Source: an uncultured Bacilli bacterium (lineage in GTDB: Bacteria; Bacillota_I; Bacilli_A; RF39; UBA660). Taken from it: 58,095 nt of DNA. The position numbers and the translations under genes were made by a program. Shown here piece after piece: positions 4,149 through 33,448 of this stretch. Each line of letters begins with the position of its first letter. Within the stretch, counting starts at the first letter, position 1. Where the stretch lies: assembly GCA_947623825.1 (NCBI GenBank), contig CANQHQ010000004.1, forward strand, positions 1-58,095, in the 5' to 3' direction. Under the pieces are notes generated by a model, which saw nothing but the letters and a program-made list of their open reading frames with translations, had not been told where the DNA came from and made no database searches.

Positions 4149-4168
4149 TATATAACCTCCTCTTGTTA

Positions 4169-5080: not shown

Positions 5081-5531
5081 TTTTTTCACCCCTTATCATA
5101 TCAAGAAAGAAAACTCCTACTCCCAGTACAATCGCAATATCAGCAATGTTAAATACTGGATAGGAATAACTTCCTAATTGAAAACTTAAATAATCGATGA
5201 CTCCATCTCGTAGAATCCGATCAAGAAAATTTCCAAATACTCCACCCATTACTAATCCATATGCGATGGCTTCTAGTTTTGATAAGTTCTTTACTTTGAT
5301 GAGATATTGATTTAATCCAATCAGGAAGAACGCACTAATGATTACGAGTAAGTATGGTTCATTTTGAAAGATACTCCAGGCTCCTCCTGTATTTTTCACA
5401 TTGGTTAATGAAAAAAAATGAGGAATGATTTCTATTGTTTGTTGAAAATCAATATTTTTTAAAACATGAAACTTTACAGATTGATCGAGAACAAGGATTC
5501 CAAAGGTAATCCAATAGAGCACTTTCTTCAT
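4962..5531 (-). CDS. lspA: Lipoprotein signal peptidase II
   Basis: Four TM segments, the NTGGAWS box and the FNIADIAIVLGVG Asp box. The 3' end runs 119 nt into rluD in another frame. Confidence 0.85.
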   Translation of the reverse strand: MKKVLYWITFGILVLDQSVKFHVLKNIDFQQTIEIIPHFFSLTNVKNTGGAWSIFQNEPYLLVIISAFFLIGLNQYLIKVKNLSKLEAIAYGLVMGGVFGNFLDRILRDGVIDYLSFQLGSYSYPVFNIADIAIVLGVGVFFLDMIRGEKNGNNSRRSQRTNRSISKRKNRSKSQQSTTVDEREENLSQ

Positions 5532-5749
5532 CTCATTTCACCGACTATATTATACCACATTCTTAGCTAAGAAAAAAGAAGATTTCTCTTTCTTACACTT
5601 TCTTCTCTTTCTTTCTTCTTTAGATAGTTTTTCTTTCTTACTCTTTCTTAGATTGTTTCTTTTTCATCATACTCTTTCTCTTAGAAAAAGAAAGAAGTGT
5701 AGAACACGACAAAACAAAAACGTCAAAATAAAAACGAAAAGAACAAGAT

Positions 5750-5790
5750 GAGGAAAAGAAAAGGATAAGAATTTCTCCCTATCCTAAATC
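5750..5790 (-). terminator. Intrinsic terminator after valS
   Basis: Minus strand AGGATA-GGGAGAAATTCT-TATCCT followed by TTTCTTTTCC. Confidence 0.55.
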
Positions 5791-5795
5791 ATTTT

Positions 5796-8348: not shown

Positions 8349-9092
8349 TTATTTTTCGACTCCGCGATTGATTTTATCAAAACAAATTTCTTTTATTTTT
8401 TTCCATAGCTTTTCACTATTTTCTTTCACATCAATCGTACTTAAATATAAATCGAAATTATCTGTTTCTACTAAGATATCAAAACTTTCATCAAAATTTA
8501 TATCAAAAAGAAAGGCTAATTGAACTAAAATTTTATCACTTTCATACTTTTGATCTCTTATTTTTTTTAATGGTTTTTCTTTTTTGAATTCTTCTAAGGC
8601 TTCTTTGCTTATTTTGTCACAATCAAAGGTCTGTTCTTTATGAATGGCTGTCTGTTTATAAATATCGACTTTATCCATATCACGAATCATTTTGCTAAAA
8701 AGACTTTCTTTTGCATTCATTTTGGGACAGGATAATTTATTGTGGTAACGAATGGCTTTTTCTATGATTGAATCATATTGATTGGATTCTACAAAATCAC
8801 GAATGTGTCCTTCCTCAAAAAGATAAATACAGCTTGCGTCGGCATGATCGACATTACTATCGCGGAAAGAATGATATTTTTTCCATTGTTCAAATCGTCC
8901 AATATCGTGAAGTAAACCAATGATTTGGGCGACCACTCGTTCCTCTTTTGATAACTGTAAACGGAAAGCAAGTTCTGCCATTAATTCACTAACCGCATAA
9001 CTATGATGATATTTCAAGGCAATATTTTCTTCTTTCTGATCATAGTCTTTTACGTACTCTTCGAATGCTTTTTTACACATTTCAAAATCCAT
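8349..9092 (-). CDS. HD domain-containing phosphohydrolase, first gene of the T-box-controlled operon
   Basis: LLHDIGRFEQ HD motif with upstream His. 18-nt gap to valS. Confidence 0.8.
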   Translation of the reverse strand: MDFEMCKKAFEEYVKDYDQKEENIALKYHHSYAVSELMAELAFRLQLSKEERVVAQIIGLLHDIGRFEQWKKYHSFRDSNVDHADASCIYLFEEGHIRDFVESNQYDSIIEKAIRYHNKLSCPKMNAKESLFSKMIRDMDKVDIYKQTAIHKEQTFDCDKISKEALEEFKKEKPLKKIRDQKYESDKILVQLAFLFDINFDESFDILVETDNFDLYLSTIDVKENSEKLWKKIKEICFDKINRGVEK

Positions 9093-9322
9093 AAAAAAAC
9101 TCCTCCTTACTGATTATAAGGACGAGTTTACCCGCGGTACCACCTTAGTTCATTCTAAAGAATGCGCTTCATTTTGGTATAACGAAACCATCATCGAAAA
9201 TTCTTACTCTTCTTTCAGAATTTCAGCTCCATCGCTACCCATAAAAAGGTTTTTATCTATTTTCACCAACCATAGACTCTCTTCCAAAAACTTCTTTTTA
9301 TTCCTCGACTTCCTCGCTTTTC
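9093..9322 (-). promoter_or_regulatory. T-box leader (tRNA-sensing riboswitch) with terminator/antiterminator
   Basis: Minus strand has AACTAAGGTGGTACCGCGGG (T-box core at 9133-9144). Stem I has AGAGAG (9277-9282) and a GGTGAAAA distal loop (9260-9267). An F-box-like CGTTA is present. The terminator is ACTCGTCCTTA-N7-TAAGGAGGAGT followed by T7 and then ATG. Confidence 0.82.
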
Positions 9323-9328
9323 AGTATG

Positions 9329-12199: not shown

Positions 12200-14519
12200 T
12201 TTTTTTCCTTCCTTTCGTGCGGAATAACACCTGATGAATATCTAAGTATCGGTCTACTAAGATAAAATGAATGTCATTTTTTATTTCATCAGGAATTTCT
12301 TCCAAATCTTTTTCGTTTGCCCTAGGAATAAAAATGGTTTTTACAAGATTTCGATGTGCGCCAATTACTTTTTCTTTTAAACCTCCAATAGGAAGAATTT
12401 TTCCCCGAAGTGTCATTTCTCCGGTCATCGCTACATTGGTCGCAATCGCTTTATCTGTTAAAAGAGACAATAACGTCGTCGTTAAGGCAACACCGGCCGA
12501 TGGTCCATCTTTCGGAATTGCTCCTTCTGGGACATGAATATGAATGTCCCATTTTTCAAACTTACTATAGTCGATGTTGTATTTATCAAAATTCGATTTT
12601 AGGTAGTCAAAAGACAACTGAGCGGATTCTTTCATGACATCTCCTAATTGTCCTGTCAAGATGATATTTCCTTTTCCCGGGAAAGAGACTGCTTCAATCG
12701 GAAGGATATCCCCTCCAAACGGCGTATAAGCCAGTCCATTGACTACACCAATTCGTTCAATGATGTCGTTTCCATTCAAAAGATACTTTTTCTTTCCTAA
12801 ATAGCGCTCGATGTTGTAATCTGTAATATCGTACTCTTCTTGTTTTCCTTCAATCAATTTTTCTTTTACAATTTTTCGTAGGATACTTGCCAAATTTCGT
12901 TCTAGGTCACGCACTCCGGCTTCTTTTGTATAACTGCGAATAATTGTCAAAATGACTTCATCACTAAATTTTACCTCTTGGATTTTTAGTCCATGTTGAC
13001 GGATTTCTTTCGGAAGTAAATAGTTTTTGGCAATGTCTAACTTTTCATATTCTGTATAGGAAGATAGCTCGATAATTTCTAAACGATCTCTTAGTTCTGG
13101 TGGAATTTGATCGTAGTAATTGGCGGTCGTAATAAACATCACTTTACTTAGATCTACTTCTTCTTCGATATAGTGATCGGCGAAAGTTTTATTTTGTTCA
13201 GGATCCAAAATTTCCAACAAGGCACTGGCGGGATCTCCTTTGATATCTTTCGTCATTTTATCAATTTCATCGATGATAAATACAGGATTCGAACTTCCTG
13301 CTTTTTTCATTCCTTGAATGATGAGACCTGGCGCTGCCCCTACATAGGTTCTTCGGTGACCAACAATCTCTGCTTCATCGTTGATACCTCCTACCGATAT
13401 CTTGGTACATTTTCGGTTCAAACTTTCCGCAATACTCTTGGCTAAAGAAGTCTTTCCTACTCCTGGAGGTCCTACTAAACAGATGATAGGACTCGTAGAA
13501 TCTTTTGTATTTTGTTTGACAGCTAGATATTCGATGATTCGTTCTTTGACCACGTCTAATCCGTAGTGAGAATCATCCAACACATCTTTTACTTTTCGTA
13601 AATCCTTATTATCTTGGGTATACACTTTCCATGGATAATCGAGAAGCCAATCGATATAGTTACGGATGACTCCTACTTCGGGAGAATTGGGATTACTTGT
13701 TTCATAGCGATTGATTTCTAATTGCAAACGATTGCGAATTTTTTCTGGACACTTTAAATTTCTTGCCTTTTCTCTTAAAATTTCTACATCGCTATCTTTA
13801 TCGTTGATATCCCCTAGTTCTTCCTTGATTACTCGAATTTTTTCTCGTAAAACGTATTCTTTCTGGGCTTCGTCAATATCATGAGAGAGTTTTTTATCGA
13901 TTTTCTTTTCAATTTCTAAAATATCAATATCATTATGGATATCTTCCATAATCATTTGACTTCTCTCTAAGGCATCAGTCTCAGAAATATATGCCAATTT
14001 TCTTTCATAGGTAGTCGGTAACGCTGGGGCAATTAAATCGGTCATCGAAGATAAATCATTTACACCAACCAAACGATTCAAAATATTGTTGGAATACTCA
14101 TTATCATCGACATACATCTCTAATAAATTCATCATTTTTCGAGAGTAGGCAGTTTCGGCTTTAGGACTGGGAACAATGTAATCCACTTCTTCTAAGGTAG
14201 CATATAAAATGTGGTCTTGTTCATCGTAATCCGTAATTCTAGTTCTCTCTAAGCCATAGACAGATAACCTCGTTCTTCCATTAGGCATATCGATTCTCAT
14301 TCGGATTTGACCGATGACACCGATTCTAGGAAGTGTAGAAGTTGTTATTTTTTCTAACGGAAGGGGTGGATTGACAATTAAAATTTCACTATTAAAATAT
14401 CCTTCTGCAATTGATATTAATTGTTTGTCTTCTAAACTATTAAACTCTAAACGAATTTCATTAGACGGAAAGAGAACCATGTTGTGGAGCAATAATACGG
14501 GTAGTTTCTTTAAATCCAT
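12165..14519 (-). CDS. lon: ATP-dependent Lon protease (LonA type)
   Basis: Lon N-domain, Walker A GPPGVGKTS, and proteolytic PKDGPSAG serine. Start set to the ATG at 14519 (MDLKKLPVLLL). Confidence 0.95.
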   Translation of the reverse strand: MDLKKLPVLLLHNMVLFPSNEIRLEFNSLEDKQLISIAEGYFNSEILIVNPPLPLEKITTSTLPRIGVIGQIRMRIDMPNGRTRLSVYGLERTRITDYDEQDHILYATLEEVDYIVPSPKAETAYSRKMMNLLEMYVDDNEYSNNILNRLVGVNDLSSMTDLIAPALPTTYERKLAYISETDALERSQMIMEDIHNDIDILEIEKKIDKKLSHDIDEAQKEYVLREKIRVIKEELGDINDKDSDVEILREKARNLKCPEKIRNRLQLEINRYETSNPNSPEVGVIRNYIDWLLDYPWKVYTQDNKDLRKVKDVLDDSHYGLDVVKERIIEYLAVKQNTKDSTSPIICLVGPPGVGKTSLAKSIAESLNRKCTKISVGGINDEAEIVGHRRTYVGAAPGLIIQGMKKAGSSNPVFIIDEIDKMTKDIKGDPASALLEILDPEQNKTFADHYIEEEVDLSKVMFITTANYYDQIPPELRDRLEIIELSSYTEYEKLDIAKNYLLPKEIRQHGLKIQEVKFSDEVILTIIRSYTKEAGVRDLERNLASILRKIVKEKLIEGKQEEYDITDYNIERYLGKKKYLLNGNDIIERIGVVNGLAYTPFGGDILPIEAVSFPGKGNIILTGQLGDVMKESAQLSFDYLKSNFDKYNIDYSKFEKWDIHIHVPEGAIPKDGPSAGVALTTTLLSLLTDKAIATNVAMTGEMTLRGKILPIGGLKEKVIGAHRNLVKTIFIPRANEKDLEEIPDEIKNDIHFILVDRYLDIHQVLFRTKGRKKNDPRNIRLLLD

Positions 14520-16147: not shown

Positions 16148-18430
16148 CTATACGTTTTCTTTTCTTTTTAAAGTAACGATTCCAACGAAAGTAGCAAAGA
16201 AACTAACCAAAGCAAGTACGAAGTAATTCATTACTCCATCATACGTACTCGGTACTTCTATTGTACTAGATTCAAATACGGCTTGAATCGATGTATTTTT
16301 CATTAACTCTTCGTCTTCCGAAATTGCTTCTTTCGTATCTGCATTGATAAATCCTTTCCATGTCTTTCCTTCTACCTTCTTCAATTGTTCGGCACTCGCT
16401 AATTCTTTTAACGAGGTTCCTTCTAGAACGGTTTCCGTCCAAGTGTTGCCTTTTTCATCGATAAAGGTAAGAGTAATTTCATAGATTGCCTTTAATTTTG
16501 TTGTAGTGGTAATGACTGTATCCAAGTCTACGGTATTTCCGTCTTCATCTACAAATCTAGCAAAATTTTCTGCGTCCATGAATTTTTTCAATTCTGAACC
16601 ATTCTCACCATCCAAAATGGCTTGTAATGTTATACCTTCAGAAGTCTCATCATAATTCACTTCTACTAGATTCTTCCTATCATTTCCTTCAACAGAAATA
16701 ACAATCTTATAGACTGGTTTTAAATTTATTTCTTGAGTAACGGCACTCTCTAAATCAAAAACTTCTTCACCAACTTTAAAATACTTAAAGTTTTCATCTT
16801 GCATAATTGAATCCAAAATACTAATGTTTTTTAGTATGGTTCCATCCTCTACGGTTCCGATGAAACTACCATTGACAGAGATTTTAACTAATACCTTTTT
16901 CGTTAATATGGTGTTTTCGTCGATTCGCTCCGCTGAAGAAGTAGCTTTTCCATCGATGTAATACGTAACGGCATATTTTCCTACAGGAACTGTTTTCATC
17001 ACAGTATCTAGGATTGTTCCATCTGCGGAAACAGCATTTCCAAGACGTGTCTTTTCGGCATTTTTACCTAAATCTAGAGTATATACTACATCGTCTAATG
17101 TTACAGTTACGGTATAGAATGTTTCCAAATCTATATTTTGCGTAATTGGATCTGTATCTTTTACTTCTTCTTTCCCAGAAACCGTTCTAAAATGAAGTGT
17201 TTTTCCTTCTTTATTAAAATCTCCGAATGTTGGAATATCTTGTAACGTTTCATTTTCATCCAAATCGTAAGGTTGTCCATTGATTGTCACCTTGACACCC
17301 CACTCGATAGAAATGGTTCCATTTTCATTCCATGGAGTTTGATCTGTTACTTCTTCTCCACTCTCTTTTACAAACTTTTGAAAGGTCTTATTTTTTTGTC
17401 CTTCTGTTTTAGCCTTTTCTAGCGCATTTTTTAATTCTTCCTTGGTGCTTTGACCCCATGTATCTCCTTTGTTTAGTTCGTAATTGACACCGTCGAAGTT
17501 TACATAAACGACTTCTGTTCCCTCTTTTGTAATGTATTTTACTCCCGCTTTATTGGGAATCTCTTTGTTATAACCTTCCGGTATAATGATGGATGCACCG
17601 TCTTTGGCATAGGTAATTGCCTTTTCGGTCATGGTTTCATCCCCTTCGATGACAGAATCGTTATTGGCAAAAAAAGTTACATTTCCAGTTACCCCTTCAA
17701 TGTGTAATTTTGCCTTCCCTGTCGTGTCATCGAGTGATTCTAATCCCCTGATTCCATCTCCTGCATACATCAATCCACGATTCGTCGTTTTCACATTTTT
17801 TACTGTTACTTCAGTGTCATTCTGTCCACCCGGAACAGCAATCAATATGGAACCTTTGCTTAAAGAGAATTTCACATCTTCTATGGTTACCTTTCCTGCT
17901 GCTTGGATTCCAGGAACAAAATTTCCAGAAATTTCCGTATTTTTCACTTCTAGGGTTCTAACTACTCCATCGTCATTTGAATTCTTTACTGCTGCATAAG
18001 TTGATCCAGCCCAAATCGTGATATTTTCTATTTTTAATGTATTACCACTATTGATGACACCAGAACCTGTAGCAGTATTTAGGGTGAGTTTTCCTCCTTC
18101 ATTGGTACTAGTAATCGTTAAATCCCCTAAATTCTGAATTCCGTACCCATTTCCATGTTGTGCCTTTAATTCTTGCCCATTTAGATCAATGGTGACATTC
18201 TTTCCTGCGGGAATCACAAAAGTATGTTCTAACGATATTGTACTAAGCAATTGAATTGTGATAGGACTTTCTGCCGCCTCGATTTGCTGCTCTACTTGAT
18301 CCCAAGAAGAACAGTCTTGTCCATTTACTTTTGCGATAGAAGCTTCTTCTGCCTGTACTTCTAGGAATCCAAAACACATAACGACCGCCAAAGCAATGAG
18401 TCCAACAAGTTTTGAGATTTTTTTCGTCAT
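16148..18430 (-). CDS. Cell-surface protein: signal peptide, parallel beta-helix-like domain, several Listeria/Bacteroides-type repeats, C-terminal TM anchor
   Basis: Signal peptide ending LEVQA|EE. An NxGxL-rich repetitive N-terminal third. Repeats of the form Y.V.V....Y.L. Tail is VPSTYDG + hydrophobic helix + KRKENV, with no LPXTG. Confidence 0.8.
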   Translation of the reverse strand: MTKKISKLVGLIALAVVMCFGFLEVQAEEASIAKVNGQDCSSWDQVEQQIEAAESPITIQLLSTISLEHTFVIPAGKNVTIDLNGQELKAQHGNGYGIQNLGDLTITSTNEGGKLTLNTATGSGVINSGNTLKIENITIWAGSTYAAVKNSNDDGVVRTLEVKNTEISGNFVPGIQAAGKVTIEDVKFSLSKGSILIAVPGGQNDTEVTVKNVKTTNRGLMYAGDGIRGLESLDDTTGKAKLHIEGVTGNVTFFANNDSVIEGDETMTEKAITYAKDGASIIIPEGYNKEIPNKAGVKYITKEGTEVVYVNFDGVNYELNKGDTWGQSTKEELKNALEKAKTEGQKNKTFQKFVKESGEEVTDQTPWNENGTISIEWGVKVTINGQPYDLDENETLQDIPTFGDFNKEGKTLHFRTVSGKEEVKDTDPITQNIDLETFYTVTVTLDDVVYTLDLGKNAEKTRLGNAVSADGTILDTVMKTVPVGKYAVTYYIDGKATSSAERIDENTILTKKVLVKISVNGSFIGTVEDGTILKNISILDSIMQDENFKYFKVGEEVFDLESAVTQEINLKPVYKIVISVEGNDRKNLVEVNYDETSEGITLQAILDGENGSELKKFMDAENFARFVDEDGNTVDLDTVITTTTKLKAIYEITLTFIDEKGNTWTETVLEGTSLKELASAEQLKKVEGKTWKGFINADTKEAISEDEELMKNTSIQAVFESSTIEVPSTYDGVMNYFVLALVSFFATFVGIVTLKRKENV

Positions 18431-22312: not shown

Positions 22313-22344
22313 CAAAAAAGGTGTAGTTTCCACTACGCCTTTTA
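22313..22344 (-). terminator. Probable terminator after the 1934-aa gene (hairpin usable on both strands)
   Basis: Plus strand AAAAAAGGTGTAG-TTTCC-CTACGCCTTTT. The minus-strand version has one C.A mismatch followed by T6. Confidence 0.4.
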
Positions 22345-22398: not shown

Positions 22399-25300
22399 TT
22401 ATTCCATTACTACTTCTGATGGAAACTTTGGTCCTTGCACTTCTGATGGTACTTTATCAGCTTCCGTTCCCTCAGGTGTTTTAACATATTTAACAGTAAC
22501 GTCACTTAGATTAGTATGTAAATTAATACCACTAAAGTCCGTGTGTGAATCATCCCACTCTATCGTAATGTTACCACGACCAAACTTAATATCTGCCTTA
22601 TCACCAGAAGCTTCTTTTTCAATTTTCATAGCGCATGAAGTTTTTACGGTGTTTCCAAGGAATCTTATATCTGGTTCACCATCTTCACCATCTTGTATTA
22701 CAGCATCCTCAGCAAAACCATTAATGATAATTACGCATTTAGGGTCATCACCATCTGCTTTAGGGAAGTTATTCAAGTAAAGATCAGATCCTTCACCTAA
22801 CTTTCCAGTTACATAGACATAAGATTTTGTGATATTTTTAGCATCAAATCCCTTTGAACCACCCGTACCCATATAGCGAATATCTACTACAGAGTGATTA
22901 TTTGTATATTTGATAGCATAGTCAACAGCATTCTCGCCTGTGTTTGATAAGGCACCTTGCCATAAAGCAAATTTTTTACCTTTCACTTCGATTAACGAAT
23001 CTTGACCTTTCTCAGCTGCAATCTCTAAATTAACACGATTAATGAAGACACTTTCAGCTGAATCCGCAACAACAATCTTTTTAGCCTTTATTATCGTATT
23101 ACTATTTGGTTGGCCAATAATAGAAACACCATTTGTAATCTTAAGTTCTTCTTCACCATAATCGATAACGGCATTTCCATCGGTAATATAAATAGCTTTG
23201 ACACTAGGGTCATTTATTGCTCCTTTAAATCCTTCTGTATCTGAAACTTTCTTAACGCCATCAGCAAGTGTTACCTTGAATACTGCCCAATAGTGAGCAT
23301 CTTCCGTAACTTTCAATGCATCTTTATTTACTGCTCCAGCAGGAAGATTATCTCCCGTTAATACTTGGCTAGAATCTTTCGTAAATCCAATTAAAGTATA
23401 AGTTTCACCATAATGTTCAAAAGTACCAAATACTGGACTTGTCGGAACCTTTAGATTTTCACCGTAATAATTATATTTCGTATCAGCTTTTCTATATGGA
23501 CCTTGGTAGTTATAGATTACTGTCGTATAAATCTTTGCGTTTTTAGAATCGTTATAATAGTTGAAGTAAGTATAATCTGAATCTGTTTCTTTGGTATCAC
23601 TATCCGCTGCATTAAAGTTTATTTTTTCCTTCACGACTTGAGAAGCTTTTCCATTTCCACTATCAGTTAAATTAACAGTAGCTCCTGTCTTAGCCGTTCT
23701 TACGATAGGATGTTCATATGTTTCTTTTTCATATGTTAAGTTACTAGCCGTAAGTTTTCCGCCTTCTTTGACATCGATAGCAACGTCTAATTTGTTGTCA
23801 GGATCAGTTGCTACAAATTTTAATTTGGTTGCCGTTAGTTCACCATTACTCTCAACATCAATCAATGTTTTGGTGTTTTCTCCTGCTTTTAGAGAAAGAT
23901 TTTCAATTTTTACACCAGTAGAACTTACTTTAAAGATAGCGTTACCTGTTTTAGAAGTTAACATCGTTCCGTCAGAACTATTGATATCTACGGCTCTATT
24001 GATATCTATTGTTTCTTCAACTTCGAATGATTTTTCAATATAAATCGTTTTATAGTCTTTCGTTAAGGCTTGTTTCAAAGTTTCTTCATCTACTACACTT
24101 ACAATATCAGAATCAAAGTTAAATTCATAAACTGTTTTATCTGCATTAGCCAATTGAACAGAATTATCTAAATCTCCAATGGTTATACTAAAGTTTTTAT
24201 CATTTAAAACCATGTTGTTTAAAGTGTATTCTGCTTCTCCACCTTCGTCTTTTAAGACTTCAGCAAATAAGGCTTTCGCACCAGCTTGAATTTTTCCTTT
24301 TAGAGCAGTTCCTGTTTCATCTAAACTAATAGGTTGAACCTCATTATTTGCACCATCTTTAGTAAATACTACTTGTTTACCGTCAGATGAAAGAGTAATC
24401 TCTTTTACTTCACCTCTTTGAAGAATGTAAGCGATGGCTCCAGGGATGCTAGTATCATTTAAGATACTTAACTTCGATTTAGGATTTTTTACATCAAATG
24501 TAATGGTAGTGTCTGTTTTAGAAATAGCAAAATGAGAAGAGAAATCACTCGAGTAATCTGTTTCAGCACTTCCTAAATCCGAAATAACATCTGTAAGGAA
24601 TTTATCTACATCAAGCGTATAATGTGCTTGTAATGTAATATCTTCATTTTCTCCTGTTTTTGAATCTTCTTGGCCTAATACAAACGGTGTCTCTGCACTT
24701 CCAGTTGTCTTATACCAATAATCAAAATCATGATAAGCATAATTTTTTCCTTCAAATGTTGGTGCTAATGTTTCTGGAATTACTTCATCCTCATAAACCT
24801 TAGCTTCTTTTGTCTCAATCTTACCTGTTGTTTCATCAAAATATTGGAAAGTGATTTTATTTTCAGTTTGATAGTCTAAGTTTTCATAAGATATCGTGTA
24901 TTCCAATGGTAAAAATGCATCTTCTTCACCATCAAAGTCTATCTCATATTTAAGTTTAGAAGTCTCACTATCTTTATTAAGTTTAAATAGAACTAATACC
25001 CATCCTTGACTATATTCCTCATCTTTAGGTTTGTACGCAGACATCTTTTTTCCAGACTCATTATATAGAGTTATAGTCCACTTATTCTTATAAGCTGTTA
25101 GATTACTATCTGTTGGGAAAGATATTTTCATTGGAACAAAGTATCCAGTAGGATTAGAAAATCCTGTTGTACCATTCAATGTTTGTTCCTTTATTTTTCC
25201 TTCAATACCATCTTTATAATGATTATCTGGTTGATCAGTGTTTGTGTGAATGTTTACATTTTCAACTGTCTCTACATTAAATCCATATCCCGTTAATTCT

Positions 25301-28203
25301 GTTTTTGCGGAAGATTCCTCTGTTAAATCTGCTTTTTTAAGAACATCATAGTCAACAGATCCACGAGAATAATCTTGGAATTTTAAATCACTATAGTCTA
25401 TTGTTACAGTATATGGAGCGTACTCTTCCTTGTCTTCTCCATCTAAGTCAACTGTGATTGTAAACCATTTGTCAGTATCGGCAAGTGCAGAACCATCTTC
25501 GTTCGTAGTTTTTAATGCTTTTAAGATATAAAGAAGATGTGAACTATTAAAATCATCACCAAATACCTTTAAATATGAAGTGCTTTCTGTATCATGTACG
25601 AACTTGATATTAATTTTCTGATTTCCATCATTATTATAATCTTGTGGAGCATTTATTAATTTTAGACCTAATCCTAAATAATAAAGTCGATTAGGAGAAT
25701 CAAATGGCTCCTCATCTTTCCAATCTCCCTCTTCGAGAATTGGTAAAACTCCACTTACCTTATATTTATGTGAATCCGTTTCATCGGCAGTTACACTTAC
25801 AGAATATCCATCTTCGGTATTATACCAACCAGTATTTGGAAATTGTGATTCTACTTCTTTGTCAATAGATTCAACTGTAAATATTGATGATTTTTCAAAG
25901 GTTACTTTACTATAATCGATTGTATAAAGTGCTGGTAAATAGTTATTACCATCCCCATCGTAATCGACACTATAATATACTTTACATGTGTCTCCATTAT
26001 CTTTACAGTTTGGATCACTTTCAATTTGGAATAAAACAGTTAAACTACCGTCGTCATTATATTCACTTGACTGAAATTCTTTCTTCTTACTACCCGTTAA
26101 GTTAGCGCTTGCTAGACGGGCTATTTTAACTTTGTCTTTGCTAACTCCTGTTGGAAGTGTAAAGGTAAAGTCAAAGTAATATCCCGTTTTCTTGTCATCT
26201 CCAAAAGCCTCACCATTTAACAATACTTGTTCAACAAGCGTTCCAGTTAATTCTCCATTCGTAAGAGATAATTCTTTATTTACCTCGCTCTTGTAACCCC
26301 ATTTTGTAAATGTCTCTTTGTCTTTTGCACTAGCTTTATTTAGGGAAACTTGAGGAATCGTTTTTTCTTGAAGTGTTAATTCACTCCAATCAAATGTAAG
26401 GGTATATGGAGTATATTCTTCTCCCTCTCCATCCATATCGACGATAATCGTAAATGTCTTATCTTCTGCATCTTTATGTAGATGTCTTAAAATATATAAT
26501 ACATCATTACCATCGAAATTATCAGCTGTTAGAGTTTTGGATTCTTCTCCTTCATGAATAAATTGAACTGTTGTTTTGTTATCAGTATCCTTTTTAGCTG
26601 TTTCTGTCTTGATTACAAATGGCAAATAGTAACCAGTTTTATCTTCTCCTTCAAATGGATCTTTACTTTCAGTAAATGTTTCTAGAATTGGAAGTAACCC
26701 TTTTACTTTTACCTTTGTTCCTTCCGTTTTAAATTGAACATCGAAATGATCAGGTTGTTTCCATCCATAAGTTTCCTCTAATGGATTTTTTGCTAAACCA
26801 CCATCAGCAACATCTAAAACACTAAATTTTGAACTTTTAACAAAAGTTAAATCTTTGTAATTAATTGTGATTGTTTGAGATTCTAAGTATTCCTTTCCTT
26901 CTCCATCCCAATCGACAGTAATTTCAATTTTGCAATCCGTATCTCCCTCGCATTTATCTTTTAACTTGAATATTTCAGTAAATACGCCTTGTTCGTTAAA
27001 ATATTCCTTACCATACGTTAATTCTTTTTCACCTTTCACAGTTACTTTAACACCTTCTGGTACAGTAACTAAATCATCTGGCTTCTTAAGATTGAACACA
27101 AAGAAGTAACCATCTTGAGCCTCAGTACTAAATCCACCTGCTCTCATGCTTTGTAATTCTACTTTTCCAGTTAATTTATATGTACCATCTTCTTGTGAAA
27201 CTAATTGATAATGCTTATTATCTCCAAATGAGGTGTAACCCCAATCTTGTAAAGTAGCTTTATCTTCAGTTGAAATATCATCTTCCTTGTCAGTCAAAGA
27301 TACCTTTGAGTCTTCTTGGAAAGTTAAACCACTTAAATCTAATGTATAGTCTGTTGCTCCATATTCTGTACCATCACCATCGAGATCGACACTAACTTCA
27401 AAAATCTTATCATCACTCGTAGGACTTACAGAACATAATACAAGTAATCCAGATTTACCTTCTACATTCTGTACATCGAAACTATCATACCCTATTGTTT
27501 TAGTTCTATTATTACCTTTTAAGATCACTTTCGTAGCATCTGTAGCATTAGGTATTTCGACAACAAAACCAAAATAGTATCCTGTAGCATCATCACCATT
27601 AAATACAGATGGATCGATGTTATCATATTTTAATAATAATCCAGTTAATTTACCAGTTGCAGGATCATAACTAAGTTCTTCACTTAGAGTGTTATTACCA
27701 CCTGTAATTTTTAAAGTTCCTTCAAAAGCATTTTTATAAGTAGTTTCAGTTGTCTTTGTTAAATCAACTGTCGCTTTTGATTTTTCAGCATAATACTTAT
27801 AATCAATGTAGCGAATATTGACTGTTTTACCACTACTCAAATCTAATTTTGTTTCACCTAAAACGGTAGTCGGTTCTTTCCATCCTGTATATTGAAAGTT
27901 TTCAGACTTTCTCTCTATCTTCTGAACCGCCATTTTGCCATAGATTGAAGTAGCATTTGTATAGCCATCGGCATCAGTAATTCCGGTAATACTTCTTGCT
28001 GCCAACATAAGATCTTGGGCAGTCAAAGTATGTTTGGAAGTAAAAGCATACTCACCAATGACATATACATACTCTGCATCTGGTTCTTTTTGTGCCACTT
28101 CTTTTCCGAGTTCTTCTAATGTCATTTCTCTTGCGGACACAGAAGTCATTGTCAAAAAGAGTGTCATAAAAGTAAAGAGTAGATATTTGATTTCTCTTTT
28201 CAT
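22399..28203 (-). CDS. Giant secreted repeat protein (1934 aa), paralogue of the 1180-aa protein
   Basis: Signal peptide ...MTSVSA|RE. In aa 25-152, 91 of 128 residues are identical to the 1180-aa protein by hand count. Six tandem 157-173-aa modules end near aa 295, 454, 611, 769, 942 and 1111, each with TGYYF and VDxDG[DE]GxEY..YT[IL]D[YLW]S.LTF. Flg_new-like repeats follow, and the C-terminal third looks like a beta-helix. No LPXTG and no TM anchor. Confidence 0.9.
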   Translation of the reverse strand: MKREIKYLLFTFMTLFLTMTSVSAREMTLEELGKEVAQKEPDAEYVYVIGEYAFTSKHTLTAQDLMLAARSITGITDADGYTNATSIYGKMAVQKIERKSENFQYTGWKEPTTVLGETKLDLSSGKTVNIRYIDYKYYAEKSKATVDLTKTTETTYKNAFEGTLKITGGNNTLSEELSYDPATGKLTGLLLKYDNIDPSVFNGDDATGYYFGFVVEIPNATDATKVILKGNNRTKTIGYDSFDVQNVEGKSGLLVLCSVSPTSDDKIFEVSVDLDGDGTEYGATDYTLDLSGLTFQEDSKVSLTDKEDDISTEDKATLQDWGYTSFGDNKHYQLVSQEDGTYKLTGKVELQSMRAGGFSTEAQDGYFFVFNLKKPDDLVTVPEGVKVTVKGEKELTYGKEYFNEQGVFTEIFKLKDKCEGDTDCKIEITVDWDGEGKEYLESQTITINYKDLTFVKSSKFSVLDVADGGLAKNPLEETYGWKQPDHFDVQFKTEGTKVKVKGLLPILETFTESKDPFEGEDKTGYYLPFVIKTETAKKDTDNKTTVQFIHEGEESKTLTADNFDGNDVLYILRHLHKDAEDKTFTIIVDMDGEGEEYTPYTLTFDWSELTLQEKTIPQVSLNKASAKDKETFTKWGYKSEVNKELSLTNGELTGTLVEQVLLNGEAFGDDKKTGYYFDFTFTLPTGVSKDKVKIARLASANLTGSKKKEFQSSEYNDDGSLTVLFQIESDPNCKDNGDTCKVYYSVDYDGDGNNYLPALYTIDYSKVTFEKSSIFTVESIDKEVESQFPNTGWYNTEDGYSVSVTADETDSHKYKVSGVLPILEEGDWKDEEPFDSPNRLYYLGLGLKLINAPQDYNNDGNQKINIKFVHDTESTSYLKVFGDDFNSSHLLYILKALKTTNEDGSALADTDKWFTITVDLDGEDKEEYAPYTVTIDYSDLKFQDYSRGSVDYDVLKKADLTEESSAKTELTGYGFNVETVENVNIHTNTDQPDNHYKDGIEGKIKEQTLNGTTGFSNPTGYFVPMKISFPTDSNLTAYKNKWTITLYNESGKKMSAYKPKDEEYSQGWVLVLFKLNKDSETSKLKYEIDFDGEEDAFLPLEYTISYENLDYQTENKITFQYFDETTGKIETKEAKVYEDEVIPETLAPTFEGKNYAYHDFDYWYKTTGSAETPFVLGQEDSKTGENEDITLQAHYTLDVDKFLTDVISDLGSAETDYSSDFSSHFAISKTDTTITFDVKNPKSKLSILNDTSIPGAIAYILQRGEVKEITLSSDGKQVVFTKDGANNEVQPISLDETGTALKGKIQAGAKALFAEVLKDEGGEAEYTLNNMVLNDKNFSITIGDLDNSVQLANADKTVYEFNFDSDIVSVVDEETLKQALTKDYKTIYIEKSFEVEETIDINRAVDINSSDGTMLTSKTGNAIFKVSSTGVKIENLSLKAGENTKTLIDVESNGELTATKLKFVATDPDNKLDVAIDVKEGGKLTASNLTYEKETYEHPIVRTAKTGATVNLTDSGNGKASQVVKEKINFNAADSDTKETDSDYTYFNYYNDSKNAKIYTTVIYNYQGPYRKADTKYNYYGENLKVPTSPVFGTFEHYGETYTLIGFTKDSSQVLTGDNLPAGAVNKDALKVTEDAHYWAVFKVTLADGVKKVSDTEGFKGAINDPSVKAIYITDGNAVIDYGEEELKITNGVSIIGQPNSNTIIKAKKIVVADSAESVFINRVNLEIAAEKGQDSLIEVKGKKFALWQGALSNTGENAVDYAIKYTNNHSVVDIRYMGTGGSKGFDAKNITKSYVYVTGKLGEGSDLYLNNFPKADGDDPKCVIIINGFAEDAVIQDGEDGEPDIRFLGNTVKTSCAMKIEKEASGDKADIKFGRGNITIEWDDSHTDFSGINLHTNLSDVTVKYVKTPEGTEADKVPSEVQGPKFPSEVVME

Positions 28204-28233
28204 TTTCTTTTCTCCTTTCTTCTGTATTTTGTC

Positions 28234-28836
28234 TTATTGTTTATTATTATTCTTTATTATTTTAGAATTCTTGTTTTCTTTTTTCTTTTTGATCATTACA
28301 ACCGCACTAACGATTAATCCGATTACAACAATTGTTAGGATTAAGACGATTCCCACGGTTGTCCAAAGAGGTAAACTTTCGTCAGAGTGATATATTTCTT
28401 TATTTGTTTCTAAGCACTCTTCCATATCCCCATTATTTCTTGCTCTAGCAACAATGTCACAGTAACTATCGGCTTCATTATATGCTGTAGCAGCTTCTTT
28501 AATTTTGTCTTTTACTTGGTCATTGAAACCAACAAAGTAGTTCGATCCAATAATTGTTATAGGTAAATCATCTTCTTTAGAAAACAATTTATCTTTTATA
28601 GTTTTAAATAGTTCTTCCTTATCTGTTTTATCGAAATATTCAAAGCTCACTGTGTTTTCCTTATTTGAATACTCTTGTAACCACTCTTTTTCCTCAGCAC
28701 ATAATTCGCAATTCTCTTCTCCAAATAAGTACACTTTTAAATCTGCATATTGGGAAGAATTCGTAACTACTGCATTTACTTCCAACGAGGGTAATAGAAG
28801 AACACAAGCAAGAATTACAAATAAACTTTTTTTCAT
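28234..28836 (-). CDS. Exported, C-terminally membrane-anchored thioredoxin/glutaredoxin-fold CxxC protein
   Basis: Signal peptide ...LEVNA|VV. VYLFGEENCELCAEEKEWL CxxC at the start of a helix, with LPITIIGSNYFVGF (cis-Pro region). C-terminal TM helix plus a K-rich tail. Confidence 0.7.
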   Translation of the reverse strand: MKKSLFVILACVLLLPSLEVNAVVTNSSQYADLKVYLFGEENCELCAEEKEWLQEYSNKENTVSFEYFDKTDKEELFKTIKDKLFSKEDDLPITIIGSNYFVGFNDQVKDKIKEAATAYNEADSYCDIVARARNNGDMEECLETNKEIYHSDESLPLWTTVGIVLILTIVVIGLIVSAVVMIKKKKENKNSKIIKNNNKQ

Positions 28837-28860
28837 GTTACCTCCTAGTTAGTTAAAATT

Positions 28861-31800
28861 TTATTCTGATTTGTGACTCCCTGTATGTCTTGACCACCAA
28901 GCATCATAGGTAGTTTTAAATTCTTGTAATTGTTTTAAGCCTGTAGTTTCATCTACACTCTCACCTAAAATTACTTTTACAGGATCCTCTACTTTGGTAG
29001 TTTCAAAATCTTGGAAAGCTAAATCAATCTTACGATTTTGTTTACTATTAATAGTAATATCCGTTACCATGCTAGTAACATAATTATCTTTGTTAACTTT
29101 TACGGTAAGTTCAAGATCACTATCTACTGTATAGGCTATTTTTTCATCACTATCAGGATCAAACATAGGATCATATCTATTATTTAGCCATCTCGTTAAG
29201 TATTCTTTTGAAATAATTACTTTATAGCAAGCTTCATCACCTGAAGATTCAGGTAATTTAGTAACTTCTTTTATACTATCGATATCAACTAAGATTTTAA
29301 GTTCTCCTACGCCAATACCAGAGTAACCTCCAAAGCTATATCTCCAACCATTTAGATATACGCCTGTATCATCTACAGTAATACCATCTTTTCCTTTATC
29401 TTTATTAATTGTATAGAACTCAAAGGTATCACTATGAGCAATTGAATGATCAGTTAACTTATCGTATTCATCCACTGGATAATATTTATTTCCTTTTAGA
29501 CTAAACGTATAAGCTTTAGTTCCTGGAATATCACTATCTGACCATACAGTATATTTGCGATTTAAATCTTTATCGTATTTTTCAACGTAGAAATCATTTT
29601 TCGATGGTAAAACATTTTTTGATGTTATAGTTAAACTTCTTACGTCGTAAGTACGATTCGCTGCTAATTGAACTTGGTCTTTTTCATTTAAAGCTAAATT
29701 ATTGTAATCCACGGAATAAGTAGATGGTGTATAATCGTCGCTTTCTGGACCATCCTTATCGATAACGATTGTATATACACGATTATCTACTGAAGTTGCT
29801 GTTAATTCAAGTTCGACTGTTTCATCGTTTCCTATCTGATTAATAGCTGAAATACTTGCTACCATAGGATTTTCCGTGAAGGTACTACCATTATATAAAT
29901 ACGTTTGTGTAGTTTCACCTAATGTAGTTGTAATCGTTGTTTCATTAGGAATAAGGTCTTTTGTCTGGACAGCAATTTTGAACTTATCATTTAAAGTTTC
30001 TTGATTATCGTTAAGAAGTCCTGCAACGTGAATTGTATAGCCATCTTGGTTTGTACGTACACCAGCATTTTCGGTAGTTTGAACACTCATCTTCGTAGCT
30101 TCTTTAAGTTCTAATCCACCGATATTCAAATAATAAGTTTCACTATCGTATTCTATACCCTCACCATCGATATCTACAGTAATAGGAATAAAGCATTCTT
30201 TACTTTGACTATCTTCTTTACATTTAGCAACGTTATCTTTGTTCAAAGAATATAAAACAGTTAAACTATCTCCTTCATTAGCAAGCGTAATTGTTTTTTG
30301 TTTATGATCTAAGAATGCTGGATCCGTTGTCACTTTACAATTTTCTCCAGTCTTGCATGAAATTGAAATCGTTGTTTTACCTGGCATTACTAAACTAGGC
30401 TTCACGTTATAGACAAAGTAATAACCTGTCTTTTCTTCACCTTCAAAAACTTTTACTTTATCTTCCATTAACCTATTAATAGTTCCTCTTAAAGTGTAAC
30501 CATTATATTTAGAATCGGTAGATTTTTCTAACGTAACATCGTAGTTAGCTGGAAATGTATAACCATAATCACCTGTAATAGTAGCTAAGTCTTCTTGTGG
30601 TAAAAGTTCTTTATTTACAACTGATATTTCTTCAGATACTTTTTGGAACGTAATTTCTGTTAAATCCATACGAATAGTATAAGGTTTATAATCCTCATTA
30701 TTTGGTTCCATATCTACAACGATATCAAATGAATTATCGTCTTTATTAGGATCTAACCATTTTAAAAGATCTATTTCATCTACACCTACGTAACCATCAC
30801 CTTTTAATTCACTACCTGCAACTGTTACAACAGAATTTTCCGTCATTGCTTTTGGTAATTTAATAGCATAACCCATGTAATATCCAGTCGTTTGTGTAGG
30901 TTCAAAAATATTATCTTTCGTTAAATTAATTTTTGCAACTTGACCAGTTACTTTAACCGTATTATCTGTTTGACTAAATTTAAGGGTATGAGCTGCATTT
31001 GCAGTCCAACCATAAGTACTTGTTAAAGAAGTTTGACCTGCTGAATCAAGTTCAGCAACATTTGATTTTGATTCTTTAATAAGTTTTAATTCCGTATAAT
31101 CAAATGTATATTCTACTGGACCATACTCTCTTTTTGCAGCACCATCACTATCGACTGTTATTTTAAATTGTTTGCTTTCTGTATCTGTTAATTGAAGAAT
31201 GATAGTGAACTTATCTTCGACTAAGCTATTGTAACCTACCGTTTTAGTTCCACCAGCACATCCAAGACAAGGAATTGTAATTTCTATATCTTCTGTAATT
31301 TTTTCTGGACTAAGTGTAAATACAACGAATTTTCCAGTTGTTGCATCTCCATTAAATCCTTTCAACGTTTTTTCAACGACTGAGCCATTGAATTTCAAAA
31401 CGCCGTTTTCTTCATCTAAGGTATACGTATCATTCTGAGATCTAACATAATCAAAACTATTTTTTAATGAGTTGACTTCATCTTGTGGAATATTTTCATG
31501 TGAGAAAGTTGCAACTGTATCTTTTTCAACTGTAAGTCCCGATACATCGATCGTATAAACTGTTGGTTCATATTCTGTGCCGTTGCCATCGATATCCACA
31601 GTTAGTTTTAATTCCTTCGTTTTTCCTGGATTATAAGATACTAAAATTGCAATCGTCGAACTACCGTTGCTATTCTGGATATCCCATGCATCCCATGAAA
31701 CTGACTTTTCCCCTATTTTTAAAGTCGTATTCTCATTTGCTCCCTCAACTGTTAAGGCATAAGCAAAATAGTAACCTGTAACCTCATCATCTGGGAAAAT

Positions 31801-32403
31801 AGTATTATCAATCGTTGTATTTTTTAATAAGTGACCAGTTATTTTACCACTAAATTTTCCAGTACTCTCGTATTTTAAATTTTGAGTTGATTGGCCATTA
31901 CCATCATATTTTACACTTGTTAAATAGTTTTTTAAGACTTCTTCCGTAGTTGTTTTTTCTAGATCCACTGTCATCTTAGCTTGTTCAGCAATAAATTGAT
32001 AATCGATATAGCGAATATCTACGCTTTTGCTATCGCTTAAATCTAATTTTTCTTTTCCTAATGCTGTAGTTGGAGTTTCCCATCCAGTGTAGGTAAAGTT
32101 TTCTGATTTTCTAGCGATTTTATAAACAGCCATTTTACCATAAACTGGTTTGTCGTTTGTTTTTCCATCCTCTGGCGTAATTCCTTGAATACTTTTCGCT
32201 GCAACCATCAAATCTTGGGCAGTTAATTTGTGCTTCGAGGTAAACGCATACTGTCCTACAACATATACATATTCTGCTGTCGATTCCTTTGCTTCTACTT
32301 CTTTTCCTAATTCCTCCAATGTCATTTGCCTTGCATAGGCTGGAGTAATAGACAAAAAGAAAGCAACCAAAGCAAAAAATGTAAGTTTGATTCCTTTCCT
32401 CAT
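28861..32403 (-). CDS. Giant secreted repeat protein (1180 aa), paralogue of the 1934-aa protein
   Basis: Signal peptide ...TPAYA|RQ and the same conserved N-terminal domain. Five modules end near aa 292, 441, 587, 766 and 905 (VDIDGNGTEY, VDSDGAAKREY, VDMEPNNEDY, VDIDGEGIEY, IDKDGPESDDY). The 18 nt spanning SD and start codon (CATTTTCTTTTCTCCTTT on plus) are identical to those at 28201-28218. Confidence 0.9.
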   Translation of the reverse strand: MRKGIKLTFFALVAFFLSITPAYARQMTLEELGKEVEAKESTAEYVYVVGQYAFTSKHKLTAQDLMVAAKSIQGITPEDGKTNDKPVYGKMAVYKIARKSENFTYTGWETPTTALGKEKLDLSDSKSVDIRYIDYQFIAEQAKMTVDLEKTTTEEVLKNYLTSVKYDGNGQSTQNLKYESTGKFSGKITGHLLKNTTIDNTIFPDDEVTGYYFAYALTVEGANENTTLKIGEKSVSWDAWDIQNSNGSSTIAILVSYNPGKTKELKLTVDIDGNGTEYEPTVYTIDVSGLTVEKDTVATFSHENIPQDEVNSLKNSFDYVRSQNDTYTLDEENGVLKFNGSVVEKTLKGFNGDATTGKFVVFTLSPEKITEDIEITIPCLGCAGGTKTVGYNSLVEDKFTIILQLTDTESKQFKITVDSDGAAKREYGPVEYTFDYTELKLIKESKSNVAELDSAGQTSLTSTYGWTANAAHTLKFSQTDNTVKVTGQVAKINLTKDNIFEPTQTTGYYMGYAIKLPKAMTENSVVTVAGSELKGDGYVGVDEIDLLKWLDPNKDDNSFDIVVDMEPNNEDYKPYTIRMDLTEITFQKVSEEISVVNKELLPQEDLATITGDYGYTFPANYDVTLEKSTDSKYNGYTLRGTINRLMEDKVKVFEGEEKTGYYFVYNVKPSLVMPGKTTISISCKTGENCKVTTDPAFLDHKQKTITLANEGDSLTVLYSLNKDNVAKCKEDSQSKECFIPITVDIDGEGIEYDSETYYLNIGGLELKEATKMSVQTTENAGVRTNQDGYTIHVAGLLNDNQETLNDKFKIAVQTKDLIPNETTITTTLGETTQTYLYNGSTFTENPMVASISAINQIGNDETVELELTATSVDNRVYTIVIDKDGPESDDYTPSTYSVDYNNLALNEKDQVQLAANRTYDVRSLTITSKNVLPSKNDFYVEKYDKDLNRKYTVWSDSDIPGTKAYTFSLKGNKYYPVDEYDKLTDHSIAHSDTFEFYTINKDKGKDGITVDDTGVYLNGWRYSFGGYSGIGVGELKILVDIDSIKEVTKLPESSGDEACYKVIISKEYLTRWLNNRYDPMFDPDSDEKIAYTVDSDLELTVKVNKDNYVTSMVTDITINSKQNRKIDLAFQDFETTKVEDPVKVILGESVDETTGLKQLQEFKTTYDAWWSRHTGSHKSE

Positions 32404-32427
32404 TTTCTTTTCTCCTTTATCTTCATT

Positions 32428-33351
32428 TTAGCGATACTCTACTGTTGCATTTACGCAATTACCTGCTGTAAAACATACTTGTGCATTTCCTACGCCTGTA
32501 TTTACTGAGTCGGCTGCAACCGTTCCAGCATTTTTATGTACTTCTTTTCCATTGTAGATAAATCCAACGTAATCACTGAATGTAGTTCCATCTTTTTGTA
32601 CTTCAAAAGTATACTGCATCACTCCACCTGTTAGTTCTTGATGAATTGCCGTTAATATTACCTTATACACTGGGTCAGGTATTGGCGTCGGTGTTGGTGG
32701 AACTGGGGTTGGAGTTGGCGTTGGATTGGATGGACGACTACTTGGTTTTTTTGTCGGTGCCGGAGTTTCTGTTGGTGTAGGCGTTGGTTTTGGTTCCTCT
32801 GTCACGGTTACCGTACATGAAGCCTGATACTTTCCATCTTTGCTTCTAACAGTTATCGTCACTACTCCACTTTTTAGTCCTATGATATTTCCATCTTTAT
32901 CTACGGTTGCAATACTTTCATCACTTGAAACGTATTCCAAATCATCCTCTGATAACCCTTCTGGTAAGGACAAAATATCTAACTTTGCTGTCTCATCCAC
33001 TTTTAGATTCATTTTTGACAAATCTAGTTCTATCTCATCTAAACTCCAATGTGCTTTCAAAGTTATATCTTTCGTAATCTTCGTATCGAAATCAAATAAT
33101 TTATCTTCATAGTACCAACCTGCAAATTGATATCCTTCTTTCGTCGGATTGACTGGCTTATCGATGCGATCATTCTCTTTCACTGTAACACTCTCAATCG
33201 CACTCCCTCCGTCGACATCAAACGTTACTAAATATTCCGGTGTTTTTGTACACCCTTTCATCAATAAAAAGATAACAATTCCAATGATTAGAACGATGAT
33301 AGCAATAGTGAAAATCATTTTAGTATTATGGTTTTCATTTGGTTTACTCAC
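32428..33351 (-). CDS. N-terminally anchored surface protein: Flg_new (Listeria/Bacteroides) repeat, Big_2 Ig-like domain, Pro/Thr linker, unknown C-terminal domain
   Basis: TM helix at aa 12-32. YLVTFDVDGG...GYQFAGWYYEDKLFDF (Flg_new). LKVDETAKL...VSSDESIATVDKDGNIIGLKSGVVTITV (Big_2). PTPTPT linker. GTG start with an AGGAGG SD. Confidence 0.85.
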   Translation of the reverse strand: MSKPNENHNTKMIFTIAIIVLIIGIVIFLLMKGCTKTPEYLVTFDVDGGSAIESVTVKENDRIDKPVNPTKEGYQFAGWYYEDKLFDFDTKITKDITLKAHWSLDEIELDLSKMNLKVDETAKLDILSLPEGLSEDDLEYVSSDESIATVDKDGNIIGLKSGVVTITVRSKDGKYQASCTVTVTEEPKPTPTPTETPAPTKKPSSRPSNPTPTPTPVPPTPTPIPDPVYKVILTAIHQELTGGVMQYTFEVQKDGTTFSDYVGFIYNGKEVHKNAGTVAADSVNTGVGNAQVCFTAGNCVNATVEYR

Positions 33352-33418: not shown

Positions 33419-33448
33419 ATTTTAATATGTACCCCCCCCCCATGTCAA
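33419..33448 (-). promoter_or_regulatory. Putative promoter of the surface-protein operon, with a homopolymeric spacer
   Basis: Minus strand TTGACA (33448-33443), 18-nt spacer T-G10-TACATAT, then TAAAAT (33424-33419). It lies about 60 nt upstream of the SD and GTG at 33351. Confidence 0.55.
33432..33441. repeat. C10/G10 homopolymeric tract
   Basis: Read directly as ACCCCCCCCCCATG on the plus strand. I did not notice any other G/C run of 8 or more in the window. Confidence 0.95.

Follow-up and report, generated by a model that had tools for sequence, protein, structure and literature searches.

A probable phase-variable surface-display cassette built from two undescribed domain families in uncultured rabbit-gut Bacillota

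Phase-variable surface coats are central to immune and phage evasion and to host colonisation, and have been documented mostly in Proteobacteria, Bacteroides and mycoplasmas. In Mycoplasma hyorhinis, which belongs to a low-GC lineage related to the Bacilli, the phase-variable vlp surface-protein genes are controlled by a homopolymer, a poly-A tract in the promoter spacer. The optimal spacer between the -35 and -10 hexamers is 17 nucleotides (nt) long. In Neisseria meningitidis a poly-G tract (porA) or a G/C tract (opc) lies between these hexamers, and a one-nucleotide change shifts the spacing and the transcription of the surface protein (PMC3899988). Here we describe a four-gene operon, C-B-D-A, in a 58,095-nt stretch of DNA from an uncultured Bacilli bacterium (contig CANQHQ010000004.1; hereafter the window), in which A and B encode giant secreted proteins, C a membrane-anchored protein and D a thioredoxin-like protein, and in which a run of ten G residues (G10) occupies the promoter spacer. 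This operon probably serves an uncultured low-GC lineage of rabbit-gut Bacillota as a phase-variable cassette for display at the cell surface, and it is composed of domain families that have not been described. It differs from porA and opc in its host, its four-gene organisation and its unrelated proteins, and in being known from sequence alone; it differs from vlp in that the Vlp proteins are small lipoproteins with short repeats under a poly-A tract, whereas here a poly-G tract precedes giant secreted proteins, 1200-2300 aa long, and a separate anchor protein.

Parts of the locus also resemble other described systems. The logic of the cohesin-dockerin pair, in which a constant small domain on varied secreted passengers is matched by an adjacently encoded partner anchored in the membrane or wall, would recur here in the constant N-terminal domain of A and B (the N-domain) and in C; however, neither the dockerin family, defined by two Ca-binding F-hand repeats, nor the cohesin family, a 9-stranded jelly roll, is matched in sequence, the N-domain has a predicted alpha/beta fold without a relative in the PDB, and the interaction is proposed from gene context. 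Giant adhesins with immunoglobulin (Ig)-like repeats, among them Bap (PMC7785521), SiiE and RTX adhesins such as LapA, are likewise long beta-sandwich arrays with acidic DxDxDG-type loops, but the tandem module of A and B lies outside the named Big, cadherin and FN3 families, and both proteins have a plain Sec signal peptide and no LPXTG motif. Three distant proteins (P0103, P0129 and P0141) contain the same module family (E 1e-15 to 1e-33) and are predicted to sit at the cell surface through SLH domains; they differ in this mode of anchoring and in lacking the N-domain and the C and D partners. Like the Listeria internalins, C carries Flg_new (the 'B-repeat'), in its case as a single repeat, but it lacks an LRR domain and is without an LPXTG or GW anchor. 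Comparison of the locus with named protein families gave membership for Flg_new and Big_2 in C and no clear membership in any other case, while the promoter carries a homopolymer of at least 7 nt between -35 and -10, as contingency promoters do. Set beside these systems, the locus is an undescribed, lineage-restricted and partly phase-variable surface cassette made from two uncurated domain families, with a control logic like that of porA/opc and vlp.

The operon occupies window positions 22399-33351 on the minus strand (Table 1). Its genes are separated by 24, 24 and 30 nt (C/B, B/D and D/A), and these gaps, together with a single strong promoter and a single terminator, indicate an operon structure with a transcript of ~11 kb. 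The terminator-like hairpin has a 12-bp stem and was assigned by the scan to the plus strand; TTTTTTGT follows this stem when the minus strand is read. A first-pass annotation, made from the sequence without database searches, had correctly recognised the operon and three of its open reading frames (ORFs), and had overlooked gene D. It had also reported that A and B are identical across the Shine-Dalgarno sequence and start codon, which is so, although the identical stretch extends over 19 nt (AAAGGAGAAAAGAAAATGA) and not 18. In the source databases A, B, C, D and their homologues are all unnamed.

Table 1. Features of the C-B-D-A operon and its promoter in the window.
Feature	Position	Strand	Description
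Operon promoter	33419..33448	-	-35 TTGACA 33448-33443; 18-nt spacer; -10 TAAAAT 33424-33419
G10 homopolymer in promoter spacer	33432..33441	-	C10 on the plus strand; candidate slipped-strand switch
Gene C	32428..33351	-	307 amino acids (aa); N-terminal membrane anchor, Flg_new, Big_2, Pro/Thr-rich linker, C-terminal domain Cct
Cct, distal C-terminal domain of C	32428..32655	-	Conserved in most C-like proteins; candidate docking site for the N-domain
Gene B	28861..32403	-	1180 aa; signal peptide, N-domain, 5 modules, C-terminal region
Gene B, N-domain	31948-32331	-	
Gene B, 5 modules	29689-31947	-	
Gene B, C-terminal region	28861-29688	-	
Gene D	28234..28836	-	200 aa; signal peptide, thioredoxin/glutaredoxin-like core, C-terminal transmembrane anchor
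Gene A	22399..28203	-	1934 aa; signal peptide, N-domain, 6 modules, C-terminal region
Gene A, N-domain	27748-28131	-	
Gene A, 6 modules	24871-27747	-	
Gene A, C-terminal region	22399-24870	-	823 aa
Intrinsic-terminator-like hairpin with T-run	22316..22343	-	Downstream of gene A; operon end

A word-indexed search with B retrieved only 7 proteins. An exhaustive hidden Markov model (HMM) search of 1.84 billion representative proteins, with a profile built from 32 modules, retrieved 285 at E <= 1e-3 and 100 at E <= 1e-30. The module-bearing proteins are mostly 1200-2400 aa long with 2-8 modules, and about 100 of the best 150 have the same N-domain directly after the signal peptide. Distant members lack the N-domain, and the presence of SLH domains in its place in some of them (the three proteins named above) ties the module to cell-surface proteins.

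Cassettes were surveyed by a motif scan for the N-domain using one genome per species, which yielded 76 loci, and genes were called with our own HMMs on the six-frame ORFs of these loci. About 72 of the 76 come from 'Lapin-' metagenome-assembled genomes (MAGs) of the rabbit gut, labelled uncultured Bacilli or Clostridia. Of 79 N-domain genes that could be evaluated, 74 have a C-like gene directly upstream, and the median distance between the two is 17 nt; this adjacency spans ~65 species-level genomes and is kept when the passenger behind the N-domain changes completely. Among the five exceptions is gene A of the window, which is not preceded by a C-like gene of its own. The recurrent order is a C-like gene, an N-domain giant and then often a D-like gene, and judged by gene order the window unit is a canonical C-B-D cassette with a second giant, A, appended. 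A literature search found no description of such a cassette. The locus defines an unnamed cassette with three components (a putative membrane stalk, a giant with the N-domain and a helper resembling thioredoxin) that dozens of uncultured species of the rabbit gut possess. Several contigs (L019, L021, L026, L027 and L078) carry two cassettes, in tandem or inverted, and on L021 two identical 305-aa C-like genes each have their own poly-G promoter (G10 and G9); such arrangements suggest cassette duplication and independent switching.

The N-domain covers aa 25-152 of both giants, and the 91 identical residues out of 128 that had been counted by hand in this segment were found again. Identity between A and B is 71% over the N-domain and 33% over the module region. 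At the nucleotide level only 53% of the third codon positions of the N-domain are identical and 40 codons differ synonymously; combined with the 71% identity of the protein, this points to purifying selection on a shared function, and recent gene conversion was rejected as the source of the likeness on the same figures. A confident model built from 61 sequences has an alpha/beta fold (predicted local distance difference test score, pLDDT, 89.9). Foldseek comparison of this model gave no match in the PDB (best E 0.23, TM-score <= 0.23) or in BFVD, and none of the 61 members matched Pfam. Since the N-domain also heads proteins that carry no modules at all, it is the constant handle, with the passenger variable.

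The link between this handle and C may go beyond position. Among 60 cognate pairs, N-domain similarity correlates with the similarity of Cct, the distal domain of C (Spearman 0.49), and hardly with that of Flg_new from the same protein (0.14); the partial correlations are 0.47 for Cct (permutation p <= 0.002) and -0.02 for Flg_new. This covariation is consistent with docking of the N-domain on Cct. Given that adjacency is nearly invariant over ~65 genomes, even with a changed passenger, a functional coupling of the two genes is hard to avoid. The suggestion in the first-pass annotation that the first gene encodes the tether of the giants thus gains strong support from gene context, to which a covariation that involves Cct and not Flg_new is added, while docking itself is something that we infer. 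A bolder proposal, which we hold only tentatively and regard as possible rather than probable, is that the N-domain and Cct are a lineage-specific display pair of a new kind, functioning as cohesin and dockerin do but based on a new fold, in which the wall-spanning membrane stalk non-covalently captures interchangeable giants under poly-G phase variation. If true, this would be a new anchoring mechanism for Gram-positive-type cells, beside LPXTG, SLH, CWB2, LysM, GW and WxL.

C was described in the first-pass annotation as an N-terminally anchored Flg_new/Big_2 protein, and both Pfam domains score above the gathering cutoff: Flg_new at aa 40-101 (E 5e-17, 62.2 bits, cutoff 27) and Big_2 at aa 107-181 (E 3e-12, 46.8 bits, cutoff 22.8). 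They are followed by the Pro/Thr-rich linker (~aa 184-232) and Cct (aa 233-307). NCBIfam gives weak matches to internalins over the Flg_new region, all of which miss the curated internalin cutoffs widely. The common layout of the C-like proteins is an anchor, Flg_new, one to three Big_2 domains, a Pro/Thr-rich linker and Cct, and the N-terminal membrane anchor of C and its homologues is often followed by KGC. None of the 472 relatives of C is named in the source databases.

D contains a CxxC motif (aa 43-46) and a second conserved cysteine pair, C126 and C141, and its match to a glutaredoxin-like (Glrx-like) family is sub-threshold (E 0.0046, 17.7 bits against a Pfam cutoff of 26). In the family of 43 homologues, which share the C-terminal transmembrane segment, the CxxC is conserved in 77%, a cis-Pro-like P92 in 95% and C126/C141 in 98%. 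Immediately downstream of the N-domain gene, a D-like gene occurs in 38 of 68 evaluable cases. The giant is module-bearing in 36 of these 38 cases, against 13 of the 30 without a D-like gene.

The modules, six in A and five in B, are each ~150 aa long, and all 11 align. An HMM of the 11 modules places their ends at aa 295/454/611/769/942/1111 in A and 292/441/586/766/905 in B, thereby reproducing the boundaries drawn by eye. Applied to six independent homologues, the same HMM finds 3-7 modules apiece (E 1e-13 to 1e-31), which shows that the repeat is not a chance pattern. Taken over 545 modules from 155 proteins, the consensus reads V-D(94%)-x-D(96%)-G(94%)-[DEN]-G(50%)-x-E-Y(75%)...T-Y-T-I-D-Y-S-x-L, with D, E or N at loop position 5 in 66%. 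The motif conforms to the DxDxDG calcium-loop pattern (acidic or amide residues at positions 1, 3 and 5, Gly at 6) cited for Bap (PMC7785521), and Ca2+ is probably bound at the D-x-D-G-[DEN]-G loop; the comparisons with dockerin and thrombospondin motifs are analogies only.

Placement of the module in a known family was not achieved, in agreement with the first-pass annotation. Pfam and NCBIfam give no match for the whole of A or B, PDB sequence searches with the two proteins and with the N-domain likewise gave nothing that recurs, no Pfam family recurs among the 32 modules even at E <= 1, and the 32-module profile finds no PDB sequence at E <= 10. In particular, the module has no significant profile match to a curated bacterial Ig-like, FN3 or cadherin-like family. 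A confident AlphaFold2 model from the 32-module alignment (pLDDT 86.4; predicted template modelling score, pTM, 0.83) shows two short helices leading into a beta-sandwich, whose last two strands are joined by a hairpin that contains the VDxDG motif. Foldseek comparison of the model with the PDB returned only weak, generic matches of Ig/FN3 type (best E 0.01, query-normalised TM-score <= 0.36). By these profile searches the tandem module and the N-domain are two families without a Pfam entry.

Behind the modules, the C-terminal region of A aligns colinearly, at 35-42% identity, to residues 1101-1934 of P0008 and of proteins like it, and it is conserved and colinear in 79 of 154 related proteins compared. 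That of B resembles the extreme C-terminus of longer relatives. P0008 and similar long proteins contain both the A-type region and the B-type extreme C-terminus, indicating that A and B together span the parts of a longer architecture.

Both giants have Sec-type signal peptides and, as had been noticed at first reading, no known anchor. There is no LPXTG-like motif, which in sortase-anchored adhesins stands at the C-terminus before a hydrophobic stretch and a charged tail, and no hydrophobic segment beyond the signal peptide (maximum Kyte-Doolittle score outside it 0.94 in A and 0.87 in B), Pfam finds neither SLH nor another anchor family in them, and the SLH domain (PF00395) is likewise absent from C and D by Pfam. 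In the module-bearing proteins P0061 and P0088, the N-terminal ~230 aa consist of about five tandem ~35-aa repeats in place of the N-domain (YFDVKYYLNNY.DLKKAF..NY..AY.HF..FGIKEGR; no Pfam match), which may be an alternative anchoring repeat.

A different use of the same architecture, which we consider unlikely, would be cellulosome-like enzyme display. The N-domain would be dockerin-like, Cct cohesin-like and C a single-site anchoring scaffold, and the C-terminal regions of the giants would be undescribed units that degrade or bind the polysaccharides of plant fibre in the rabbit caecum, with the modules as spacers or carbohydrate-binding modules (CBMs). The adjacency of C-like and N-domain genes and the covariation with Cct fit this explanation equally well, and varied passengers behind a constant N-domain, the fibre-fermenting gut habitat and the conservation of the long C-terminal region of A are in keeping with it. 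However, glycoside hydrolase, lyase, CBM, dockerin and cohesin families are all missing from the Pfam results for A, B and four long relatives, and for A and B they are missing from NCBIfam and from sequence searches of the PDB as well. Moreover, phase variation at a promoter is characteristic of antigenic or adhesive surface structures and not of core digestive enzymes.

It is also improbable, in our judgement, that A and B are released rather than tethered, either as secreted matrix or biofilm proteins or by binding the wall directly through the N-domain, with C and D physically unlinked to them. Near-constant adjacency to a C-like gene, with a short gap and across many species, despite changes of passenger, argues against such independence. 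The absence of a recognisable anchor from A and B suits release, the N-domain has no structural relative that would indicate its ligand, and genetic linkage can explain the covariation with Cct.

The control proposed for the cassette rests on its promoter, the best-scoring sigma-70-like site of the region (11/12 matches), with the sequence TTGACA-T-G10-TACATAT-TAAAAT. The G10 is the sole G/C run of at least 7 nt in the window. Sense-strand G tracts of 7-14 nt are found upstream of 10 other cassettes. Examination of 1.21 Mb of non-redundant related loci revealed 14 G/C runs of at least 8 nt, ten of which are sense-strand G tracts no more than 200 nt upstream of C-like genes; these upstream intervals account for 1.5% of the total length (binomial p = 6e-16). 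Two of the other four lie at contig ends, one of these on a promoter homologous to a cassette promoter, and the last two precede paralogous signal-peptide proteins. On contig L072, near-identical G8 promoter-like regions (14426-14433 and 17117-17124) precede 485- and 592-aa signal-peptide proteins outside the cassette family, so poly-G control in the lineage would extend to other secreted proteins.

In 11 of 15 tracts examined, the flanking hexamers match TTGACA/TATAAT at 10-12 of 12 positions, and the spacer is 17-19 nt in nine. Tract lengths differ: two paralogous promoters of one MAG have G9 (17-nt spacer) and G10 (18-nt spacer), and at a locus encoding an identical C-like protein (P0273) in six independent assemblies with identical flanks, three have G9 and three G10. 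At a second orthologous locus, again with identical flanks, one assembly has G10 and two have G9. With a G10 inside the spacer, tracts at orthologous promoters and length differences at two orthologous loci, the earlier remark that the system was 'possibly phase-variable' now has a sound basis. In another assembly of the window strain (L007, ~1620-1650) the -35 hexamer of the same locus reads GTGACA instead of TTGACA with G10 unchanged, a difference due either to a genuine promoter-down mutation or to an error at low coverage. That the poly-G arose in sequencing or assembly, or that it is a fixed part of the promoter without a switching role, is very improbable: Illumina two-colour chemistry does give spurious poly-G, and at low coverage the length of a homopolymer is easily misread, but artefactual poly-G falls at read or contig ends and not at a conserved functional position, whereas these tracts are contig-internal, on the sense strand, mostly between -35 and -10 hexamers and, in more than 10 independent MAGs of differing sample origin, always before one gene family, with lengths that vary between orthologues and between samples.

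We therefore favour the phase-variable display cassette introduced at the outset, and hypothesize that it works as follows. A single promoter would drive C-B-D-A, and slipped-strand mispairing at the G10 would alter the length of the spacer, here 18 nt, so that expression of all four genes would rise or fall heritably and reversibly. C would have its N-terminus in the membrane, with Flg_new, Big_2 and the Pro/Thr-rich linker reaching outward as a wall-spanning stalk that presents Cct. A and B would be exported by Sec and then retained at the surface by docking of the N-domain on C, most likely on Cct. Their tandem beta-sandwich modules would form an extended stalk that displays the variable C-terminal regions as a coat or adhesin, with Ca2+ in the D-x-D-G-[DEN]-G loop probably lending rigidity to each module. 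D, as an extracytoplasmic membrane-anchored protein with a putative thioredoxin fold, would probably aid folding of the module proteins, for example by way of the paired cysteines of the latter. A surface role is proposed because distant module proteins have SLH domains, C has Flg_new and Big_2 domains as internalins do, and the giants have Sec signal peptides. The interpretive elements of the first-pass annotation are supported as far as computation allows.

Several observations weigh against this hypothesis. The window's own locus has G10 in all three available assemblies and shows no length variation (L006 and L007 have G10; a third contig ends before the tract). The G9/G10 differences elsewhere were seen in Illumina assemblies of low coverage (~5-6x where stated), and at such coverage a homopolymer may be called at the wrong length. 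A G tract of at least 7 nt is present in only 11 of 72 upstream regions (~15%), and phase variation is therefore not universal in the family. The covariation of the N-domain with Cct could stem from physical linkage, their coding segments being ~100 nt apart. As for D, the CxxC is absent from 23% of homologues, and the cysteine density of the giants does not differ with or without a D-like gene (p = 0.37), which gives no specific support to a disulfide role; a tie of D to cysteine-rich giants was rejected on this result, D being linked to module-bearing giants instead.

The locus yields a candidate for a new surface-anchoring pair and two new domain families to curate. In addition, the length of the G tract in sequencing reads could serve as a marker for population heterogeneity of this uncultured gut lineage, obtained straight from metagenomes.

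The operon is flanked in the window by housekeeping genes (GreA, trigger factor, Lon, IF-2, ABC-F and RmuC), and with these flanks and an even GC content across the window, an origin from a phage or mobile element was rejected. In L001, unlike in the window, the cassette lies directly upstream of the S10 ribosomal operon. Between spo0A and that cassette (L001 5677-6686) are ORFs of 92, 117 and 122 aa with N-terminal hydrophobic segments, one of which has a prepilin-like G/WGLKE motif. In L006, a 2.4x-coverage assembly, gene B is broken into ORFs of 763 and 409 aa (3949-6924), owing to a frameshift or an assembly error. A 760-aa ORF between GreA and trigger factor (window 16148-18430, minus strand) has no Pfam or NCBIfam match. 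The sole Rfam match in the window is a T-box leader (RF00230, 131.6 bits; 9115-9323, minus strand) upstream of a 247-aa ORF at 8349-9092, and no tRNA genes were found there. Finally, window positions 38211-42360 include a SipW/archaeal-type signal peptidase I (39790-40326, minus strand; TIGR02228, E 5e-31) adjoining proteins of 168, 191, 216 and 545 aa, none of which matches Pfam or NCBIfam; this cluster may encode a TasA/camelysin-like secreted fibre.

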